Below are positions 10,963 through 18,651 of a stretch of 19,325 nucleotides of DNA, piece by piece. Source of the DNA: a virus; UHGV virus genome UHGV-0136548. One strand, given 5' to 3'. The notes under the pieces are model-generated. The model had not been told where the DNA came from. It worked only from the letters and a program-made list of their open reading frames with translations, and did no database searches. The position numbers were made by a program, and so were the translations under genes. Positions within the stretch are counted from its first letter, which is position 1; each line of letters begins with the position of its first letter.

Positions 10963-11049
10963 ATGAACACGGCATTCAAAATCATTATGGCCGCGATCTA
11001 TTTCTGGCTGTTCTCTATCACTTTTGGCGGCATCGTCGCGCATGGGTAA
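10963..11049 (+). CDS. candidate micro-ORF, 28-aa hydrophobic peptide
   Basis: MNTAFKIIMAAIYFWLFSITFGGIVAHG. ATG 7 nt after GGAGC; stop 9 nt before the next gene start. Below the ORF-track cutoff. Confidence 0.35.
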   Translation: MNTAFKIIMAAIYFWLFSITFGGIVAHG

Positions 11050-11058
11050 GGGGGATGC

Positions 11059-11787
11059 ATGAAAGGCGAAGTGAAAGAGCGCGGCATGATTTTCAACGAT
11101 GAGATGGTCCGAGCCATCCTCGAAGGAAGGAAAACGCAGACGCGGCGGATAATGAAAAATCAGCCTGCGGAAGTTGGTCCAGAAGCACCAGTGATGGTTA
11201 GGGAAATTGGTGCAGGTTTTCAGTGGTACGGGGCTGATGGTGTAAGCAGTGTTTTCAATTGCCCCTTTGGTATCGTCGGCGATCGAATTTGGGTTCGTGA
11301 AACATGGGCGATATTAGGCAATGAAGATGGTTGCAGTGTGGACTGGAACGACAACCTTTGTCGTGGCGATGAGAAGAACGCAGCAAGGATTTATCGGGCC
11401 AGTTGTGAGCAAAAACCTGGTGATTACGGCTTATGGTCGATACCCGATGATGCCGACTGGAAACCTCACACTGTGAATGAAAAGTTTGATGGTGGGTGGC
11501 GTCCATCAATTCACATGCCGCGATGGGCATCACGCATTCTGTTGGAAATTACCAACGTGCGCGTTGAACGGTTGAACGATATCAGCGAATGCGATGCAAG
11601 GGCTGAGGGCGTTCCGCCTGCTGGAAGTTTGCTTCCTGATCACCCGGGAACATTCCTTACTCCCAAGAGGGATTTCGCAATGGCCAAGGTTGCGTTCCAG
11701 CGCCTGTGGGAATCCATCTATGGTGAAGAAAGCTGGAACGCTAATCCCTGGGTGTGGGTAATCGAGTTTAAGCGCATTCAGGAATAA
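11059..11787 (+). CDS. conserved phage protein with ASCH/PUA-like N-terminal signature (tentative)
   Basis: 242 aa. Strong RBS AAGGGGGA. MIFNDEMVRAILEGRKTQTRR resembles a widespread phage N-terminal motif that I recall as ASCH-like. Confidence 0.45.
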   Translation: MKGEVKERGMIFNDEMVRAILEGRKTQTRRIMKNQPAEVGPEAPVMVREIGAGFQWYGADGVSSVFNCPFGIVGDRIWVRETWAILGNEDGCSVDWNDNLCRGDEKNAARIYRASCEQKPGDYGLWSIPDDADWKPHTVNEKFDGGWRPSIHMPRWASRILLEITNVRVERLNDISECDARAEGVPPAGSLLPDHPGTFLTPKRDFAMAKVAFQRLWESIYGEESWNANPWVWVIEFKRIQE

Positions 11788-11796
11788 ACCGTGAGT

Positions 11797-11874
11797 ATGC
11801 ATCAAATCGTCAGTTTTTCAGGTGGACGAGCATCGGCCTGTCTCGTTCATCTGTTCGAAGAGGTAGTGGCATGA
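11797..11874 (+). pseudogene. 25-codon ORF resembling the N-terminus of a PP-loop ATPase (possible gene remnant)
   Basis: MHQIVSFSGGRASACLVHLFEEVVA resembles the PP-loop start hVSxSGGKDS, with Ala in place of the Asp. Ends at a stop overlapping the next ATG. Confidence 0.25.
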
Positions 11875-12074
11875 CAATCGTAAAAACCCATACCGGCACC
11901 GTGATCACCAAAGACGGGCCGCAGGTAAAAAAACTGCACCAAACAGAGCGGATGTGGGTCGTCGGCAAAAATGAGTTTTACCACAAAGATACCGGACGCC
12001 GCCACTTTGCAGAAAATACGCGCCGTCGACTGCTGTTAGACACCATCAAGCCTATCGAGGTGAAGCATGTTTAA
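11871..12074 (+). CDS. hypothetical small protein (67 aa)
   Basis: ATG preceded by GAGG; ATGA overlap upstream; ends overlapping the next start. Confidence 0.45.
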   Translation: MTIVKTHTGTVITKDGPQVKKLHQTERMWVVGKNEFYHKDTGRRHFAENTRRRLLLDTIKPIEVKHV

Positions 12075-12306
12075 ACAGAACGAAAAAGCTATCGCTCAAA
12101 TTGCTGATTATATCCCGCGTGCGTGCCGGGGTATGCAGTTGCAGGAAGCCAAAGCGCGCCTGGAGAAAAAAATTGCGCTCTATATTGATGACGGCTGTGA
12201 TGCTGCCGTTCTTAACGCGGCGTTCGCACCAGCTCTTAACAGTCATACTCGGGAGTCTTTTTTTTCGTGCATCGAAGCGCAACTCCGCAAAGGAGGCAGC
12301 CAGTGA
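12067..12306 (+). CDS. hypothetical small protein (79 aa)
   Basis: ATG preceded by GAGGTG at 5 nt. Stop overlaps the next GTG start (GTGA). Confidence 0.45.
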   Translation: MFKQNEKAIAQIADYIPRACRGMQLQEAKARLEKKIALYIDDGCDAAVLNAAFAPALNSHTRESFFSCIEAQLRKGGSQ

Positions 12307-12851
12307 GCGAAATTAATTACCAGGCACTGCGTGAGGCGGCGGAACGTGCAATTCCAGCAATGGAACGCCTGTCAATATTGCCAGCTGATGATGATTTGTT
12401 AAGTGAACAGGAACTTAAAGATTACGGTGTGGATATTGATGCGCTCAACGCCTTCAAATTTCTGGCCGGACCAGAAACCGTGCTGGCACTACTGGATGAA
12501 CGGGAAAGAAACCAGCAATACATCAAAAGCCGTGACCAGGAGAACGAGGAGATTGCGCTAACGGTAGGGAAGCTGCGTGTTGAGCTGGAATCCGCAGAGA
12601 ACAACCTTATTGATAGTGAGTGCCATGTTGCTGAACTGGAAGAAGCGCTACGCGATAAGCAGGCGTTACTTGAAGCATCAGAGAAGCGCATAGCAGAACT
12701 GGAGGAGCGGGAAATACTGCTCCCGGAACGTAGCAGCATGCTTCATCGAACAGATTTTCACGATGATTACCAAACGGTAATGGCATACAAAGTTTCTGAA
12801 GTCATCGCTGCAATCCGCGCCGCAGGCATTCGCATCAAAGGAGGTGAGTAA
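12303..12851 (+). CDS. acidic coiled-coil protein (Ead/Ea22-like; tentative)
   Basis: Start chosen at GTG 12303 (strong AAGGAGG RBS 9 nt upstream) rather than the overlapping ATG 12267. Central EEALRDKQALLEASEKRIAELEERE coiled-coil. Confidence 0.45.
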   Translation: MSEINYQALREAAERAIPAMERLSILPADDDLLSEQELKDYGVDIDALNAFKFLAGPETVLALLDERERNQQYIKSRDQENEEIALTVGKLRVELESAENNLIDSECHVAELEEALRDKQALLEASEKRIAELEEREILLPERSSMLHRTDFHDDYQTVMAYKVSEVIAAIRAAGIRIKGGE

Positions 12852-13027
12852 TGCGTGTGGCATGTATCGGCTTGTTACCGTACCCGACTCGTTTTTGGGC
12901 TTCTGCGCTAATTGCAAAGCCGTATGTCCTGATGGCTGACAACATCATCCCGGCACCAAAGCGCCGCCATACCGGTATTGCAGCGGCACGACGAGCAGCA
13001 AAGAGACGCAGGAGAGCAAAGCGATGA
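12851..13027 (+). CDS. candidate small basic protein (58 aa)
   Basis: ATG overlaps the upstream stop (TAATG) and is preceded by GGAGGTGAG; Arg/Lys-rich C-terminus. Below the ORF-track cutoff. Confidence 0.35.
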   Translation: MRVACIGLLPYPTRFWASALIAKPYVLMADNIIPAPKRRHTGIAAARRAAKRRRRAKR

Positions 13028-13200
13028 AAAACCGTAAGGCAAAACGACTTTTTTTACAGCGACCTGTGCGTGTGGTGGAGCTGGTTATTAGCAACCATAA
13101 GATAGCGGTACTCCATCCATTTGGTCAGGTGGCTTTTGCCGCAAAGCGTAAGCCTACTGCGTCACAGAACAGGCGGAAGAAAGGGTACGCAGTAAGATGA
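13024..13200 (+). CDS. candidate small basic protein (58 aa) starting MKNRKAK
   Basis: ATGA overlap with the upstream ORF. First 20 nt nearly identical to the start of the next ORF. Confidence 0.35.
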   Translation: MKNRKAKRLFLQRPVRVVELVISNHKIAVLHPFGQVAFAAKRKPTASQNRRKKGYAVR

Positions 13201-13385
13201 AAAACCGTAAAGCAAAGATTCTGTTAGTTCGTAGAAACGCTCCTGGCGTCTGGCAGTGGGTGAGACTCAGCAACCGACGGATGGGGTTGATGAAATATTA
13301 CGGGATGATGGATTGTGGTTTTTGCAAAAAGCCCAGCGCGGCGCAAAACCGCTGGAAAAACCATTTGCGCACTAAAGGAGAGTGA
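13197..13385 (+). CDS. small basic protein (62 aa) starting MKNRKAK
   Basis: ORF-track entry; ATGA overlap upstream; contains a CGFC motif. Confidence 0.4.
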   Translation: MKNRKAKILLVRRNAPGVWQWVRLSNRRMGLMKYYGMMDCGFCKKPSAAQNRWKNHLRTKGE

Positions 13386-13386
13386 T

Positions 13387-13902
13387 ATGGCGTTAACACA
13401 CCGCGAACTCTGTCAAATTGCGTACAAGTTCCTTAAGCGCAACGGGTTCAAGGTTTGTTTTCATGACCGCTTTATAGCTGTAACCAGTACCGGAGAACAG
13501 CCAGATGCTACGGGGTTCAGAAATTCAGCATCATGCCTGATAGAGGCGAAGTGTTCTCGTGCTGACTTGTTGGCAGATAGAAAAAAGCGTTTCCGTAAAA
13601 ATCCCTCACTTGGCATGGGCGACTGGCGATTCTTTATTAGTGAGCCGGGAATTATTTCAATTGAGGATTTACCACCTGGCTGGGGATTACTTCACGTTGT
13701 TAACGGAAGAGTACGGAAAGTACATGGGTGGCCCAAGGGTAATTGCTGTTGGGGTAATCCTGACGATAAGCCATTTACTGGAAATAAGCAGGTTGAATGC
13801 GATTACATGTTATCTGCATTAAGGCGCATGGAGTTGAGAGGGCACCTTAATGAAATATATGACGGTGTAATTGTTAATAAGAAAGAAGGAAACGCGGCAT
13901 GA
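13387..13902 (+). CDS. PD-(D/E)xK-fold protein (MmcB-like; tentative)
   Basis: Start at ATG 13387 with strong AAGGAG RBS. PDATGF...CLIEAKCSRADLL fits a D...ExK nuclease-like core. Confidence 0.45.
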   Translation: MALTHRELCQIAYKFLKRNGFKVCFHDRFIAVTSTGEQPDATGFRNSASCLIEAKCSRADLLADRKKRFRKNPSLGMGDWRFFISEPGIISIEDLPPGWGLLHVVNGRVRKVHGWPKGNCCWGNPDDKPFTGNKQVECDYMLSALRRMELRGHLNEIYDGVIVNKKEGNAA

Positions 13903-14783
13903 TCACTATTACCAAAGAGCGACTACTGACAATCAAGCAGTGGCGCGAAACATACGGACCTGGTAGCAACGTTGTACTGCCAGCAGAAGAAGCGGAAGAA
14001 CTGGCACGAATTGCTCTGGCATCGCTGGAAGCAGAACCAGTTGCTTATATTTTCAAACATCCGGCCGGGAAATTATTCTGGGCTTTAACGGATGAAAGCA
14101 ATAAAGAGCAACCGGACGTTATTCCTGTTTATGCTGACTCACCTGCGCCGGTTGTGCCGGATGAAATAGACGTAAACGATGTACCAAGGGCGGTGACATA
14201 TTTCAAGACACACAGAGATTGTTACGCAGATGGCTGGAACGCCTGCCGCGCCGCCATGCTTCAGTCCGGAAACTTTCGGGAAAACAAGAATTCGTCAACC
14301 AATAATTTTCGGGAAATCGCGGAAACGTCAACCAACTATCCGGTAATTCCTAGTGAGGTGTTGTCCGCAATCCGGGAGGTTGCCAAGATTCGTGCCGATT
14401 TCGATGATTTTGACGGTGACAGGCGAGGTATCGGTGATTGTCTGGATGAGGCCGAGCAAGAGCTTATCGTTACCATTAACAAATATGCCAGTCAGTTGGC
14501 AGCAGAACCTATAGCGCCTAATGACGTTCGAGAGCAGACAGCCATTCCGCAAGTTCCGGTAACTCCGGATGGTTGGATAAGCTGTAGTGAGCGAATGCCG
14601 AATACCAAAACAGCCGTTCTTGTTGCCGTGGAGTTTGACAGGAAAGGTGACTGGCGAATGAAATGGGCTACTTACATCCCGGGGCATCCTGACGCTAATG
14701 ATGGGTGGATAATTCCTGGTGCGTCGTGGAAACCGTCACACTGGATGCCGCTACCAGAACCGCCGCAGGAGGTGAATCAATGA
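13899..14783 (+). CDS. phage protein with C-terminal DUF551-like domain
   Basis: 294 aa. C-terminus GWISCSERMP...VLVAVEF...W...GWIIPGASWKPSHWMPLPEPP is the typical DUF551 pattern. ATGA overlap upstream. Confidence 0.55.
   Translation: MITITKERLLTIKQWRETYGPGSNVVLPAEEAEELARIALASLEAEPVAYIFKHPAGKLFWALTDESNKEQPDVIPVYADSPAPVVPDEIDVNDVPRAVTYFKTHRDCYADGWNACRAAMLQSGNFRENKNSSTNNFREIAETSTNYPVIPSEVLSAIREVAKIRADFDDFDGDRRGIGDCLDEAEQELIVTINKYASQLAAEPIAPNDVREQTAIPQVPVTPDGWISCSERMPNTKTAVLVAVEFDRKGDWRMKWATYIPGHPDANDGWIIPGASWKPSHWMPLPEPPQEVNQ
14271..14339. repeat. two-copy imperfect 33-bp tandem repeat inside the DUF551 gene
   Basis: TTTCGGGAAA at 14274 and 14307, CGTCAACCAA at 14293 and 14326, both 33 bp apart. 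Encodes NFRENKNSSTN / NFREIAETSTN. Confidence 0.6.
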
Positions 14784-14863
14784 GCTGGCCTGAAGCATTC
14801 ACCACGGTAGGAATTGTGATGGCGGCAGCACTGGGTTTGTATTCAATTTGTCGCTGGTGGTAA
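14780..14863 (+). CDS. candidate micro-ORF, 27-aa hydrophobic peptide
   Basis: MSWPEAFTTVGIVMAAALGLYSICRWW. Strong SD AGGAGGTG 6 nt upstream; ATGA overlap with the DUF551 gene stop. Below the ORF-track cutoff. Confidence 0.4.
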   Translation: MSWPEAFTTVGIVMAAALGLYSICRWW

Positions 14864-14865
14864 CG

Positions 14866-15099
14866 ATGGGAAAAATAACTTTTGTAGTCGAATTTGAGGA
14901 TGGTAAAGAGCCACCTGTTAGCGCCAATCTTGATGTTGCTGGTGGCAGGCTTGTTTCGGTTCTATTTGGTGACTACCGAGATGATTTCTTCCAACCAGAA
15001 GAAGTTGATGTGGTGCGAGAGGCATTAAACGAGTTAAGTGTTGATAACGATGATGCTCATGCGGAAATCATCCAAAAAATGGAACTGCTAACTCACTAA
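14866..15099 (+). CDS. hypothetical small acidic protein (77 aa)
   Basis: ATG 14866 (MGKITFVVEFEDG) chosen over the upstream in-frame ATG 14848, which overlaps the micro-ORF. Confidence 0.45.
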   Translation: MGKITFVVEFEDGKEPPVSANLDVAGGRLVSVLFGDYRDDFFQPEEVDVVREALNELSVDNDDAHAEIIQKMELLTH

Positions 15100-15147
15100 A
15101 TTATCAATTATGGTGCTATCACCTACGACACCGAGAGAAAATTTATA

Positions 15148-15270
15148 ATGTCAAAAGTAAATGTTTTGATTTTTTCAGTAATTGTAGGTTTTGGTTTTTC
15201 TGCTGGAGTGCATATTTATATTACGTGGGAAAAAATCATCAACTACGTATGGAGTTGTTTTATTAAGTGA
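15148..15270 (+). CDS. candidate micro-ORF, 40-aa hydrophobic peptide
   Basis: MSKVNVLIFSVIVGFGFSAGVHIYITWEKIINYVWSCFIK. Stop 7 nt before the next start; AT-rich context. Below the ORF-track cutoff. Confidence 0.35.
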   Translation: MSKVNVLIFSVIVGFGFSAGVHIYITWEKIINYVWSCFIK

Positions 15271-15277
15271 GGTAAGT

Positions 15278-15571
15278 ATGTGGAGAGGTAATAGTCATGG
15301 CAAAAGCCAGATGATACTTACCGAATATCAGTTTGACCATAAAACCAATAAATCACGTTCAGTATATTTGCTTCGGCACAATAGCCGCGTAAGGAATACC
15401 GTGCTGGAACAAAATCTGACAGTTGAAATAGATAATTACGGGGGCTTCAAGCCAACAATTTCGCTTGATGATTTTCCTCGTGGTTTAAGCGAAAGAGAAG
15501 CAATGCTGAAATTAGCAGAATGGCTACAAAGATTAAGCATTGCTATTGAAGATAACTGGTCTGAACCTTAA
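15278..15571 (+). CDS. hypothetical protein (97 aa) in low-GC island
   Basis: ATG 15278 with GAGG 8 nt upstream, in frame with the longer track ORF 15191..15571 that overlaps the micro-ORF. Confidence 0.45.
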   Translation: MWRGNSHGKSQMILTEYQFDHKTNKSRSVYLLRHNSRVRNTVLEQNLTVEIDNYGGFKPTISLDDFPRGLSEREAMLKLAEWLQRLSIAIEDNWSEP

Positions 15572-15577
15572 ATTTAT

Positions 15578-15952
15578 ATGATGACACTAAAACATTTTCT
15601 TGACCGCCCATTATGGGCGGCAGCCGCAGGCTATGACTTTAATTATATGGATTGCATGTCTTATACTGCCAATGCATACGACCATGCGTTCAGCCTGCTG
15701 TTTAATTCTTTAAGAATATTGCCGGAAACAGAAGTTGGAGAGCTTCATTTATGGATATTGAGCTTTATCGCGGCAGTCGTTGGTATTGCTGTATGGCCTT
15801 TTATTTTCTGGCTGGTGGCTGTTGTAGTGTGGTTTAAGTGCAAGACATACCGGAGAAAGTATTTCTTAGGTGATGGAATGACCGATATTGCCAAAATGAA
15901 CATTGAAAAATGGACTAAGGAATGTGAAAAGAAATGGCGCAAAAAGAAATGA
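15578..15952 (+). CDS. small membrane protein (124 aa) with hydrophobic segment and Lys-rich C-terminus
   Basis: LWILSFIAAVVGIAVWPFIFWLVAVVVWF is a predicted transmembrane hairpin; C-terminus KKWRKKK. Start is uncertain: a GC-rich hairpin sits at 15606-15622. Confidence 0.5.
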   Translation: MMTLKHFLDRPLWAAAAGYDFNYMDCMSYTANAYDHAFSLLFNSLRILPETEVGELHLWILSFIAAVVGIAVWPFIFWLVAVVVWFKCKTYRRKYFLGDGMTDIAKMNIEKWTKECEKKWRKKK

Positions 15953-16866
15953 CCAGAATCACTGAAGAGCGTATATCAGAGATTATTTCCCGTATCGAAA
16001 TGTATGGTCACGGTGCTGGATATACGGCAGATGAAGTATTGGCACTTGCCCAAATGGCTTTGGCGGCTTGCAAAGATGATAAAAAAATGAAGCTTATCGA
16101 CTTGTTAGTGAAGGAGCTGCCTAAGTGCGGCGGGTGGCCTGATGGAATGAGTTATTGTTACCTACCCAGTGTCAATTTAATGGCACCATGCGCGACTTTT
16201 GCTTTTGGCTCAGACCACAAAAAAGACACTTTCTTTGGGCGCAATTTTTGTTGTGAGATTGAGCTTCCAATTGGTGACCTTGATAGCGATGAATACCAGT
16301 CAGTTGTCACTCGCGAACAATACGAATCAGCTCTCATAGCGTCGCAGAAAGTCGAGTTCAATGGTGATGAACTTGAAAGTAAGACTTACAGGTTGGATTT
16401 TGGGCAATGGCTGGAACAGCAACGCGGGAAAATCGATGTGGACTGTGGTTGTGTGTCCACTGAAACATTCATGCACTGGCTGCGGGTAGCTTACGAGGCT
16501 GGCAACTATCCGGATATTCCGGATAGTTCGGTGCCAGGGCCAGGAAAGGGCGTCACCGGTGAACGTATCCGCATTAAACCGCATGTTTATCGCGAACTGG
16601 TTAACCGTCTCCACGATACAGCGATCAAGTGTGCTGGCACCCAGCAATTACGAGAAAGAATTAGCCGTGTTTTGGGCGACGTTATTACACCAGATCATCA
16701 TAAACAAGCCGAGAAAAGTGGCCTGGAAAGGTGTCACCTTGAGGCGGCATTAAACATTAAGCCGGGGCATACGCTTGGCATTATTGATGCACTATTGGTT
16801 CATAAGATGGCCAGGGCTTTATTGCCGCTGGTGGATGCTGGCGATACAAGCGAGGGTGAAGTATGA
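15934..16866 (+). CDS. hypothetical protein (310 aa), Cys-containing
   Basis: Long ORF overlapping its neighbours at both ends by a few nt. No family recognised. Confidence 0.5.
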   Translation: MAQKEMTRITEERISEIISRIEMYGHGAGYTADEVLALAQMALAACKDDKKMKLIDLLVKELPKCGGWPDGMSYCYLPSVNLMAPCATFAFGSDHKKDTFFGRNFCCEIELPIGDLDSDEYQSVVTREQYESALIASQKVEFNGDELESKTYRLDFGQWLEQQRGKIDVDCGCVSTETFMHWLRVAYEAGNYPDIPDSSVPGPGKGVTGERIRIKPHVYRELVNRLHDTAIKCAGTQQLRERISRVLGDVITPDHHKQAEKSGLERCHLEAALNIKPGHTLGIIDALLVHKMARALLPLVDAGDTSEGEV

Positions 16867-17225
16867 GAGTTGCAGATCACATCAAACACCTTGAAAGAAT
16901 TATCGAAAACGGTGAACTCTTAAGAGATCAGATGAGACGCACGGCAGAAGTCAGAGAGGCGATAATCCGCAGTCAGGCTGGTAAATTAAAGCAATTATCA
17001 GAGATTAACGCGCTATACAAGAACAGACGTAACCGGGCGGCGCTGCGGCTTCAGAAAGCACGTAATGAAATTAAATTGGTGGAGCCAAAACTGAAAAAAC
17101 AGATTCAGCGTTACGATCAGCAAGATGCTTTTTATGCCGCCATCAAGGCGGCTGCTAATGAAATAGGCATCTGGAAGTTGCTGGTGGAGAAAGCAAAGAC
17201 GAAGTTAAATGCCAACGAAAGCTGA
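16863..17225 (+). CDS. hypothetical coiled-coil protein (120 aa)
   Basis: ATGA overlap upstream with GAGGGTG RBS; Lys/Arg/Glu-rich helical sequence. Confidence 0.5.
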   Translation: MRVADHIKHLERIIENGELLRDQMRRTAEVREAIIRSQAGKLKQLSEINALYKNRRNRAALRLQKARNEIKLVEPKLKKQIQRYDQQDAFYAAIKAAANEIGIWKLLVEKAKTKLNANES

Positions 17226-17299
17226 ACTACAGGTACCCACCAGCACATACAGAAAATGATTGTTTCCACATCAAGGAGATTTTAATGTTTCACTGAACA

Positions 17300-17437
17300 T
17301 TAAGTAAGCCAGTGCATAATTCCATTTTTTACTGACCTTAAAAGCAAAATCAAAACGATGATGAGGATGATCGCCAGAATCTGGCTAATAACAGGCGCAT
17401 CTAAAAATGCACTCAGGAACTGAAAAAAAGCAGTCAT
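17300..17437 (-). CDS. candidate 45-aa hydrophobic peptide (type I toxin-like or small membrane protein)
   Basis: MTAFFQFLSAFLDAPVISQILAIILIIVLILLLRSVKNGIMHWLT. AAGGA about 9 nt upstream on the minus strand. Sits in an otherwise ORF-poor 660-bp region. Confidence 0.3.
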   Translation of the reverse strand: MTAFFQFLSAFLDAPVISQILAIILIIVLILLLRSVKNGIMHWLT

Positions 17438-17479
17438 TAAGGTGGTTCCTTGTCAAATGTAAAGGAGCACTTGCTCACG

Positions 17480-17508
17480 TTGACGTAGAAACCCAACCCC
17501 TATATAGT
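17480..17508 (+). promoter_or_regulatory. near-consensus sigma70 promoter (TTGACG-17 bp-TATAGT)
   Basis: -35 at 17480-17485, -10 at 17503-17508. Flanked by a 9-bp inverted repeat GCTCACGTT (17473-17481) / AACGTGAGC (17535-17543). Confidence 0.4.
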
Positions 17509-17598
17509 TGGATTCGGTGAAAGAAAGTCGTTAACGTGAGCTTACGGCACATGTTTTCGGAACAACATCAGGGAACGGCTAATTCCTTGATGCGGATG

Positions 17599-17617
17599 GG
17601 GTCTGTAATGCAGACCC
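17599..17617 (+). other. stem-loop about 100 nt downstream of the predicted promoter
   Basis: GGGTCTG-taatg-CAGACCC, 7-bp stem. No clean U-tract follows. Confidence 0.35.
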
Positions 17618-17886
17618 TATCTATTAACGTCATGATTGCATCTCAAATTTTCTCCTTATCTTCATTAATCAAAATTCATTTCATTTGTGAAACATCACAA
17701 TATTTAGAAAATGGCCCTCTTGCAAGTGCATAACTTTGTGGATAAATCAGGAAGAAAAAAGTTGATTCTGCGCACGGCAAGGCAGATAAGCTGTGCACAA
17801 AAATCAATGGGAAAAGAAAAAAAATTAAAAGTTACTTTGCTGGTTAAATAATAGTCGTTACGCAATTGTTCTGGATGGGATTTGAT

Positions 17887-18138
17887 ATGCACGATTGGAA
17901 TATTGCAGCTAAAAGTCAGGAAGAACGGGATAAGGTTAACGTTGATCTGGCTGCCAGCGGTGTGGCGTACAAAGAGCGATTGAACATACCTGTCATAGCT
18001 GAACAGGTAGCCCGCGAGCAACCAGAGAATCTGCGCACCTATTTCATGGAACGGTTACGGCACTATCGGCAGTTAAGCCTCCAGTTGCCAAAAGGGAGCG
18101 ATCCGGTGTATCAGAACGAGGATGCACCAAAAAAATAA
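17887..18138 (+). CDS. hot: homolog of DNA polymerase III theta subunit (HolE-like)
   Basis: [36 protein letters not shown] aligns closely with my recollection of E. coli HolE ([36 protein letters not shown]). Start set at ATG 17887; the track's longer ORF begins at TTG 17866. Confidence 0.8.
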
Positions 18139-18223
18139 CGGCAAGATGGGGGAGAAATGTGATTAGCCCCCAGCGTGGCGCGCCTACAAACCCCGCTTTC
18201 ACAAACTATGCCTTTTCAATGTA

Positions 18224-18243
18224 TACTGTATGAATAAACAGTA
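18224..18243 (+). promoter_or_regulatory. LexA (SOS) box upstream of humD
   Basis: TACTGTATGAATAAACAGTA is a perfect CTGT-N8-ACAG palindrome, 19 nt upstream of the humD start. Confidence 0.8.
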
Positions 18244-18261
18244 TCATTGAGGTAAAACGCT

Positions 18262-18651
18262 ATGGACTTCCCTTCTCCTGCGGCGGATTATGTTGAAAGC
18301 CGAATTTCTCTTGATCAGCAGATAATTAGACATCCTTCAGCGACCTACTTCATGCGGGCAGCTGATAGCCATCACCGTGAGGGAATATTGCAGGGTGCTT
18401 TGCTGGTGGTTGATTCCTCGCTTACTCCGGTTGATGGTTCTCTGCTTGTGTGCGCTATGGAGGGTGAATATCGCATAAAGAGATACAGGAAGTATCCGCG
18501 CCAGCACCTGGAGGATTTAAGCACCGGGAAGAAAGAGGCGTTACCAGTAGATGACGATGGATACACGGGCAGTAATGCTGTTTTTGGTGTGATCACTCAT
18601 GTCATCAATGATGCCCGAAGTGGGGAATTTGATGATTGTCCGGTTATTTAA
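18262..18651 (+). CDS. humD: UmuD-like S24 peptidase family protein
   Basis: 129 aa. FPSPAADY...HPSATYFMRAADSHHREGI...EYRIKRY parallels the UmuD/LexA C-terminal domain (Ser and Lys present). GAGGT RBS; SOS box upstream. Confidence 0.8.
   Translation: MDFPSPAADYVESRISLDQQIIRHPSATYFMRAADSHHREGILQGALLVVDSSLTPVDGSLLVCAMEGEYRIKRYRKYPRQHLEDLSTGKKEALPVDDDGYTGSNAVFGVITHVINDARSGEFDDCPVI

Follow-up and report, generated by a model that had tools for sequence, protein, structure and literature searches.

The AT-rich stretch at positions 15100–15952 of the viral genome UHGV-0136548 raises the question of whether it constitutes a single, horizontally acquired cassette, and of what its small proteins may do for the element that carries them. 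A first-pass annotation had read it as such a three-gene island, a moron, and had named superinfection exclusion, abortive infection and lysis modulation as candidate roles. The window, to which all coordinates refer, is the whole stretch of DNA that was analyzed (19,325 nt).

Genomic context

The sequence around the three genes recurs with 100% identity in about ten E. coli plasmids of 96–128 kb, including the IncY plasmid NZ_CP023961, and shares 97–98% identity with the P1-like phages vB_EcoM-813R1 and SJ46. The gene order of the window comprises tail and baseplate genes, pmgL to pmgS, pap, a block of small genes, hot, humD, phd and doc. Given these plasmid and phage identities and this gene order, the window is a P1-like (IncY) phage-plasmid. 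The replicon, a low-copy plasmid prophage, carries the phd-doc addiction genes.

The three-gene stretch lies between pap and hot of the P1-type backbone, inside a 4.7-kb block that has no counterpart in reference P1. The pap–lxr interval has been published as the variable region RD-5 of P1-like elements (PMC6906374) and the variable interval from pap to hot as "region 8" (PMC9603915); both papers tie the variable regions to a low G+C content. The pap-to-hot interval is AT-rich and its content varies among P1-like elements. The three genes are an ordinary case of the variation already described for this region. Flanking repeats, direct or inverted, which might have pointed to a mobile-element insertion, were not found in a repeat search.

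Base composition

The GC content of positions 15100–15952 is 0.377 (37.7%), compared with 0.477 (47.7%) for the whole window, and deviates with z = -3.6 from 19 non-overlapping windows outside the region. The lowest 853-nt window starts at 15136 with a GC content of 0.375, to which the stretch is essentially equal, and 0.16% of the overlapping 853-nt windows are as low as the stretch. The first-pass annotation, which had described the stretch as more AT-rich than its flanks, was correct on this point. It had also proposed a comparison of GC and codon usage, in which both GC and GC3 proved to differ significantly from the window and the backbone genes. The GC3 of the three genes is 0.371 versus 0.496 in 20 backbone genes (Fisher p = 9.9e-5), and the low GC therefore does not merely result from hydrophobic and lysine-rich amino acids. 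For the 124-aa gene alone, GC3 is 0.432 and not significantly low (p = 0.17); its low GC arises mainly from first codon positions, i.e., from amino-acid content.

Change points of the cumulative GC deviation place the full AT-rich tract, a feature without strand, at approximately 14835–16401. It also takes in the gene of a 77-aa acidic protein (14866–15099) and the 5' part of the gene that follows the 124-aa gene. The AT-rich island is thus real, but its original boundaries, 15100 and 15952, were too narrow. A second AT-rich valley, with a GC content of 0.392, is found just downstream (17226–18000).

Conservation of the three genes

The positions given to the three ORFs by the first-pass annotation are confirmed, as are the product types: a hydrophobic 40-aa peptide, a soluble 97-aa protein and a 124-aa membrane protein with a Lys-rich tail. 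The ORFs were extracted from 7–10 distinct relatives for the calculation of pN/pS, and all three are intact and unchanged in length in every relative examined. The pN/pS values are 0.33 (40-aa), 0.21 (97-aa) and 0.22 (124-aa), and 0.07 for the 77-aa neighbor. The three products match the PHROG families phrog_5525, phrog_1258 and phrog_2638, respectively, at the same or nearly the same length, and distant homologues of equal length occur in other temperate phages for all three. Judged by this conservation, all three ORFs are real genes, and two of the products, the 40-aa and the 124-aa protein, are predicted membrane proteins.

Searches for a function returned little. Pfam and NCBIfam scans of the three proteins and five neighbors gave only DUF551 and Ead/Ea22 domains, all of them in the neighbors. 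The same eight proteins had no match at E <= 0.1 in PADLOC-DB v2 (5,027 defence-system models), and none of the island proteins matched the superinfection or exclusion families of Pfam. Profile searches of solved structures (PDB) were without a match, and a Foldseek comparison with viral structure predictions yielded, for each model, one notable match that is unnamed and probably belongs to the protein's own family. Neither an Rfam scan of positions 14000–18300 nor a literature search by protein accession numbers gave a match.

Properties of the individual proteins

The first gene (15148–15270, + strand; phrog_5525) encodes a putative single-pass micro-protein of 40 amino acids with one hydrophobic segment. 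The frame is open and exactly 40 codons long in all eight variants, and the changes among them are conservative. Its homologues share 47–50% identity and a similar length, and keep the hydrophobic pattern and the motif YITWE; in the phages EC.W1-9 and phiv142-3 they are located directly after ea22/eaa genes. In most plasmid records the ORF carries no annotation.

The 97-aa gene (15278–15571, + strand; phrog_1258) is preceded by a GAGG Shine-Dalgarno sequence 5 nt upstream. Its product lacks any hydrophobic segment (maximum Kyte-Doolittle 19-residue mean 0.21) and is matched by 128 database clusters. It is homologous over its full length to N15 gp44 and phiKO2 gp43 (55–67% identity), whereas the neighboring genes differ: N15 gp45, compared directly, is unrelated to the 124-aa protein. 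A distant relative is found beside an EaD gene in a Salmonella phage. In the AlphaFold2 model (pLDDT 80.5), four antiparallel strands form a beta-meander, and the long amphipathic helix at the C-terminus bears the invariant residues FP..L..RE.MLKL..WL.R....IED.W.

The 124-aa protein (15578–15952, + strand; phrog_2638) has a hydrophobic segment at approximately residues 57–86 (Kyte-Doolittle maximum 2.6) and the sequence KKWRKKK at its C-terminus. In the structural model, which is of moderate confidence (pLDDT 71, built from 8 sequences), a helical N-terminal part is followed by a long hydrophobic helix, residues 55–97, and a basic C-terminal helix. The family is small, with about 33 matching clusters among 1.84 billion representatives. 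Among 26 diverse members, conservation extends to the N-terminal motif TLKHF.D.P..A..AGY.....DC, to a (V/I)RELP motif ahead of the membrane segment and to a proline halfway along this segment that hardly ever varies, but not to the Lys-rich tail. A cytoplasmic location is expected for the basic C-terminus. The protein would then be either bitopic, with the acidic N-terminal part in the periplasm, or folded as a re-entrant hairpin around the proline, with the N-terminal part in the cytoplasm. One homologue stands behind the O/P replication genes of a lambdoid contig; in N15-like elements a homologue is positioned between an RNase_T-family exonuclease gene and dam.

Distribution among P1-like elements

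A check for the presence or absence of the genes among related phage-plasmids had also been suggested along with the annotation. They are found in part of these elements only and are missing from reference P1. In PLSDB, 680 plasmids carry pmgS; about 310 P1-like plasmids have the 97-aa gene, 257 plasmids the 124-aa gene and 225 the micro-ORF segment, so that each gene is present in about 33–46% of the 680, and at least 80% of the stretch is covered in 221 plasmids. A further 42 PLSDB matches to the 97-aa gene, at about 65% identity, are mostly from Klebsiella plasmids. In complete E. coli genomes, 309 out of 5,426 carry some part of the stretch, and 314 of the 318 places are on plasmids.

Several arrangements differ from that of the window: the 97-aa and 124-aa genes only (RCS47 type), the 97-aa gene only, the 40-aa and 97-aa genes without the 124-aa gene, and another small ORF between the 97-aa and 124-aa genes. 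The breakpoints, 15272, 15571 and 15953, are gene boundaries. In the relative L006 the identity to the window is 82% for the micro-ORF but 97–98% for the adjacent genes, which shows recombination between them. In the slot after the 97-aa gene, other P1-like plasmids encode a different small protein: one of 54–58 aa that contains two hydrophobic segments, or one of 69 aa whose N-terminus resembles a signal peptide. Patches of the block content are common to the P1-like plasmids SJ46, RCS47 and vB_EcoM-813R1, and P1-like elements exchange about 30% of their genes (PMC10879196).

Outside the P1-like elements, distant homologues stand beside unrelated neighbors in N15-like, lambdoid, P22-like and Uetakevirus phages. 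In Yersinia phage P840, an N15-like contig and a lambdoid contig, the gene upstream of the 124-aa homologue shows no relation to the 97-aa protein; the one in the N15-like contig shows none to the 77-aa protein either. By comparative sequence analysis, it is well supported that the three genes are separately shuffled accessory genes and not one self-contained cassette. The claim of horizontal acquisition agrees with the deviant composition and the patchy presence, but that of a single three-gene island does not stand, as the genes assort separately with breakpoints at their boundaries. About 98% of the plasmids with the micro-ORF (221/225) also carry the 124-aa gene, and a functional link, instead of clonal linkage, could be the cause.

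Comparison with reference P1

Positions 2571–11753 of the window align to P1 (NC_005856) with 98.7% identity, and the alignment continues without a gap at 16491–18141 with 97.6% identity. Since the flanks are contiguous in P1, it lacks positions 11754–16490, an accessory block of 4,737 bp (+ strand). The junction in P1 falls within two ORFs, both of which the window has in full. P1 PmgT corresponds to the first ~231 residues of a 242-aa ORF (11059–11787) and continues into an out-of-frame 3' part of a 310-aa ORF, the last 111 residues of which constitute PmgU. The simplest reading of this junction is that reference P1 carries a deletion, rather than that this plasmid gained a single insertion. 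In P1, pmgT, pmgU and pmgV are non-essential (PMC10695390).

The gene of the 310-aa protein (15934–16866, + strand) directly follows the 124-aa gene. Its N-terminal motif is common to the DUF551 gene at 13899–14783 and to N15 gp45. Translation probably begins at ATG 15949, as the protein would then start with MTRITEERI, a sequence similar to the N-termini of the DUF551 gene product and N15 gp45. The P1 backbone resumes with the pmgV homologue (16863–17225, + strand), whose 120-aa product is almost identical to P1 PmgV.

Operon context and expression

A C1 repressor operator corresponding to P1 OpmgT (former Op88) is located upstream at 10864–10880 (+ strand), where it overlaps the stop codon of pap. 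It has one mismatch to the C1 operator consensus, of which the window contains four matches versus 0.09 expected, and its position and sequence agree with the feature annotated in NC_005856. In the P1 record this operator overlaps the predicted promoters P2pmgT and P1pmgT. The corresponding predicted sigma-70 promoters at the head of the operon in the window (10865–10908, + strand) have almost the same sequence as those annotated in P1.

All genes between 11059 and 17225 share one orientation. A consensus scan of the + strand revealed no sigma-70-like promoter between 14408 and 17480, although the scan is crude and weak internal promoters in AT-rich DNA can escape it. No terminator-like site was found on the + strand from 14041 to 16761 and no P1 late-promoter box within the AT-rich tract; the late promoter LPhot is conserved at 17829. 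The 40-aa and 97-aa genes are 7 nt apart and the 97-aa and 124-aa genes 6 nt, and the stop codon of the 124-aa gene overlaps the ATG at 15949 (ATGA) that probably starts the following gene. We infer from this arrangement that the three genes lie within a C1-repressed operon as internal cistrons with coupled translation. The upstream position of OpmgT and the tight coupling suggest expression on derepression, and the genes would probably be expressed on removal of C1 rather than in the lysogen. As a single (monovalent) operator, OpmgT may repress incompletely.

Morons are defined by a promoter and a terminator of their own, which allow expression from the repressed prophage (PMC3594210). The stretch shares with them the extra DNA relative to close relatives and the deviant GC, whereas the consensus scan detected neither an own promoter nor an own terminator. 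The label of an acquired moron consequently keeps its deviant composition and patchy presence but loses its own transcription signals and its unity. It fails mainly because the genes are internal coupled cistrons of what appears to be a C1-repressed operon, and the C1 operator upstream, as predicted here, argues against expression from the repressed prophage.

Proposed explanation and its alternatives

We propose that the three gene families circulate in temperate enterobacterial phages, both in ea/nin-type early regions (lambdoid, P22-like) and in N15-like plasmid prophages, and that their genes would have reached the pap-to-hot region through recombination events located at gene boundaries. 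Such a history would account for both the low GC and the patchy distribution. In the operon transcribed from the PpmgT promoters and controlled by C1 through OpmgT, the genes would be silent or nearly so in the lysogen. Once C1 is removed, by induction or in a fresh infection, coupled transcription and translation would produce the three proteins. The 40-aa and 124-aa products would insert into the inner membrane, and the 97-aa protein may act separately in the cytoplasm by binding a partner. Because two products are predicted membrane proteins and other small envelope proteins fill the slot after the 97-aa gene, a dispensable, host-specific envelope function early in lytic growth is conceivable, for example to keep out the DNA of competing phages or to disturb a host function associated with the envelope. 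The biochemical role of the products is speculative. That the three are separately acquired, dispensable ea/nin-type accessory genes in a known P1 hotspot is well supported, while the whole explanation, from independent accessory genes through the C1-controlled operon to the early envelope role, commands a little over half of our confidence.

If the genes were instead a moron expressed in the lysogen from a weak promoter of its own, the membrane proteins could confer superinfection exclusion or abortive infection, like HK97 gp15, P22 SieA or P1 Sim. We consider this unlikely, although it draws on two of the moron properties (PMC3594210), the deviant composition and the presence/absence among relatives. 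In addition, two products are small membrane proteins, other small envelope proteins in the same slot of relatives resemble diversifying cargo, and AT-rich DNA often has promoters that a strict consensus scan misses. However, no promoter-like or terminator-like site was seen on the coding strand in or beside the tract, and the genes are translationally coupled to their neighbors inside the putative C1-controlled operon. They also assort independently, have homologues in the early regions of other phages, and give no match to the 5,027 defence-system models or to the Pfam superinfection and exclusion families. The role in lysis modulation would make the 124-aa protein a holin/antiholin-like timer with the 40-aa peptide as its partner. 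The small size, the hydrophobic helix and the Lys/Arg-rich tail suit a holin, as does a weak similarity to phrog_20, a holin family (E = 0.026), but this similarity is not significant and spans the hydrophobic segment and the charged tail only. In distant members it is the N-terminal motif that is conserved and the Lys-rich tail that varies. The neighbors are Ea22-like, DUF551 and pmgV genes, with no endolysin or spanin gene nearby, and Pfam and NCBIfam returned no holin match for the island proteins. Moreover, reference P1 lacks these genes, and its pmgT–pmgV remnants are non-essential (PMC10695390). A function in lysis timing is, in our estimate, very unlikely.

Two further readings concern the micro-ORF. 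As a type I toxin, it would produce a membrane-damaging peptide that is checked by an antisense RNA and aids plasmid maintenance. The peptide is indeed hydrophobic, two opposite-strand promoter-like matches (15339–15311 and 15303–15275) face into the ORF, and the replicon, as a low-copy plasmid prophage, already uses phd-doc for addiction. Such weak matches, however, are at chance level (10 found versus 8.6 expected in shuffled sequence), no opposite-strand terminator-like site lies downstream of them, and Rfam gave no match. The ORF is an internal coupled cistron and not a separate unit with a long leader, and its homologues in non-plasmid phages stand directly after ea22/eaa genes. An addiction role is thus highly improbable. 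Still less credible is that the micro-ORF is no gene and that the protein actually made is an extended, 126-aa version of the 97-aa protein that starts at TTG 15191. The corresponding ORF (15191–15571) exists and some gene callers predict it, and several database entries of 125–140 aa bear N-terminal extensions of this kind, but the 40-codon frame is kept in eight variants and has homologues of 47–50% identity elsewhere. The start at TTG 15191 was rejected, given that distant members of the 97-aa family are about 97 aa long with the same Met-Trp start, that GAGG precedes ATG 15278 as a Shine-Dalgarno sequence, and that the homology of RCS47-type plasmids begins at 15272, 6 nt before this ATG.

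Relation to known systems

With RD-5 and region 8 the locus shares the pap-to-hot position, the variable content and the low G+C. In their available text, the papers on these regions proceed gene by gene against P1 and do not address the three genes. The present comparison splits the block into modules that assort separately and explains the P1 arrangement by a probable 4.7-kb deletion. The locus also resembles the lambdoid exo-xis/ea region (ea22, ea8.5, orf60a-63; PMC7093339, PMC8614690, PMC10834534) as an array of small dispensable genes in the company of Ead/Ea22-like, Eaa and DUF551 genes, with likely repressor control and early expression. Homologues of the three genes were found in repressor-controlled early accessory regions beside Ea22, Eaa and DUF551 genes. 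The two regions differ in that the present one belongs to a P1-type plasmid prophage under C1, not CI/pL. The characterized exo-xis proteins show no homology to the three proteins, of which two are predicted membrane proteins. With the HK97 gene 15 moron (PMC3594210) the locus has in common extra DNA relative to close relatives, a deviant GC and a small inner-membrane product. It differs from that moron in that no own promoter or terminator was found and several independent genes are present within a repressor-controlled operon.

About 6% of complete E. coli genomes contain P1-like phage-plasmids; because these elements spread resistance genes, their variable cargo is of practical interest. 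To a specialist in phage genomics, nothing here is surprising as it stands. Reading the AT-rich stretch as separately shuffled early accessory genes, and not as a defence cassette, shifts the focus to derepression and to single genes.

Neighboring small genes

The analysis also brings to light small membrane proteins that routine annotation misses. In addition to the 40-aa gene, the block contains an unannotated 27-aa hydrophobic micro-ORF (MSWPEAFTTVGIVMAAALGLYSICRWW; 14780–14863, + strand). An AGGAGG Shine-Dalgarno sequence precedes it at a distance of 6 nt, and its start codon overlaps the stop codon of the DUF551 gene (ATGA). A bolder reading, which we regard as distinctly unlikely, is that the slot after the 97-aa gene is a diversifying one for small proteins sent to the envelope (those of 124, 54–58 and 69 aa), and that these proteins and the unannotated hydrophobic micro-proteins of 27, 28 and 40 aa, translationally coupled in the same C1-controlled operon, form an unrecognized early membrane-effector set of P1-like phage-plasmids. 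If this were true, the set could exclude competing phages or disarm envelope-associated host defences, and the N-terminal motif of the 124-aa protein (TLKHF-D-P--A--AGY-----DC) would be a target-binding element. The 27-aa peptide is conserved in the relatives L006, L008 and L010, and a diverged form of 24 aa is found in L011–L013. It is followed by the gene of the 77-aa protein (14866–15099, + strand), which matches phrog_3876, is strongly acidic with 18 D/E versus 6 K/R residues, and has a GC3 of 0.32 and, over six distinct alleles, a pN/pS of 0.07.

Accessory block and its probable deletion from reference P1

The pmgT and pmgU genes of reference P1 (NC_005856) look, from sequence comparison, like the leftovers of a 4.7-kb deletion that removed the equivalent of positions 11754-16490 of the window. 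Alignment to the window places the junction at about 85182 of the P1 record (position 9183 of the corresponding locus, L014). In P1 PmgT, approximately 231 N-terminal residues of a 242-aa ORF (11059-11787) are fused to a different reading frame of the 310-aa ORF's 3' portion, and PmgU is equivalent to the C-terminal 111 residues of that 310-aa ORF. The junction reads CCCTGGGT up to the join and TACGAGG after it, with microhomology of at most 1 nt.

The true start of the 310-aa gene is probably the ATG at 15949, and not the annotated start at 15934. An N-terminal motif, M-(I/T)-(T/R)-I-T-(K/E)-E, is common to this gene, the DUF551 gene and gp45 of phage N15 (sites: 15934 versus 15949 and 13899 in the window, and 2782 in locus L003). 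The motif may represent a recombination linker between modules at their boundaries.

Small genes of the block

A very acidic 77-aa protein (18 D/E versus 6 K/R; phrog_3876) is encoded on the plus strand at 14866-15099, and its pN/pS of 0.07 marks the strongest conservation within the AT-rich tract. The gene lies immediately outside the segment 15100-15952 delimited in the first-pass annotation. Further upstream, a tandem pair of small paralogous genes (13024-13200 and 13197-13385, plus strand; phrog_1380) overlaps by 4 nt, and both products begin with MKNRKAK.

The slot 3' of the 97-aa gene holds differing small envelope proteins in other P1-like plasmids (L007 2972-3136, L008 2972-3148 and L009 2825-3034). 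The occupants are of two types: a protein of 54-58 aa carrying two hydrophobic segments, and a Cys-rich 69-aa protein (phrog_20764) whose N-terminus resembles a signal peptide.

Two hydrophobic micro-ORFs were found on the plus strand. The first encodes 28 aa (10963-11049; peptide MNTAFKIIMAAIYFWLFSITFGGIVAHG) behind an AGGAG Shine-Dalgarno sequence, and separates the PpmgT/OpmgT control region from the operon's leading gene. P1, RCS47 and a further two plasmids encode this peptide without any change, yet the ORF carries no annotation in the P1 record. The second, also unannotated, encodes 27 aa (14780-14863; peptide MSWPEAFTTVGIVMAAALGLYSICRWW), is preceded by AGGAGG and overlaps the stop of the DUF551 gene through ATGA. 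It is kept in three relatives, and a diverged 24-aa form occurs in three others behind a different upstream gene.

Regulatory sites and a second AT-rich valley

Directly 3' of PpmgT lies a perfect 10-bp GC-rich hairpin (10913-10935), which resembles a terminator of leftward transcription because the subsequent T-run is present on the minus strand only. Three more sequence matches to the C1 operator lie at 5099-5115, 8723-8739 and 8772-8788, and correspond by position to P1 O26 (Op82) and OpmgRa/b (Op86a/b). Another AT-rich valley (17226-18000; GC 0.392) spans the homologues of upfM-upfO together with LPhot, a late promoter located at 17829.
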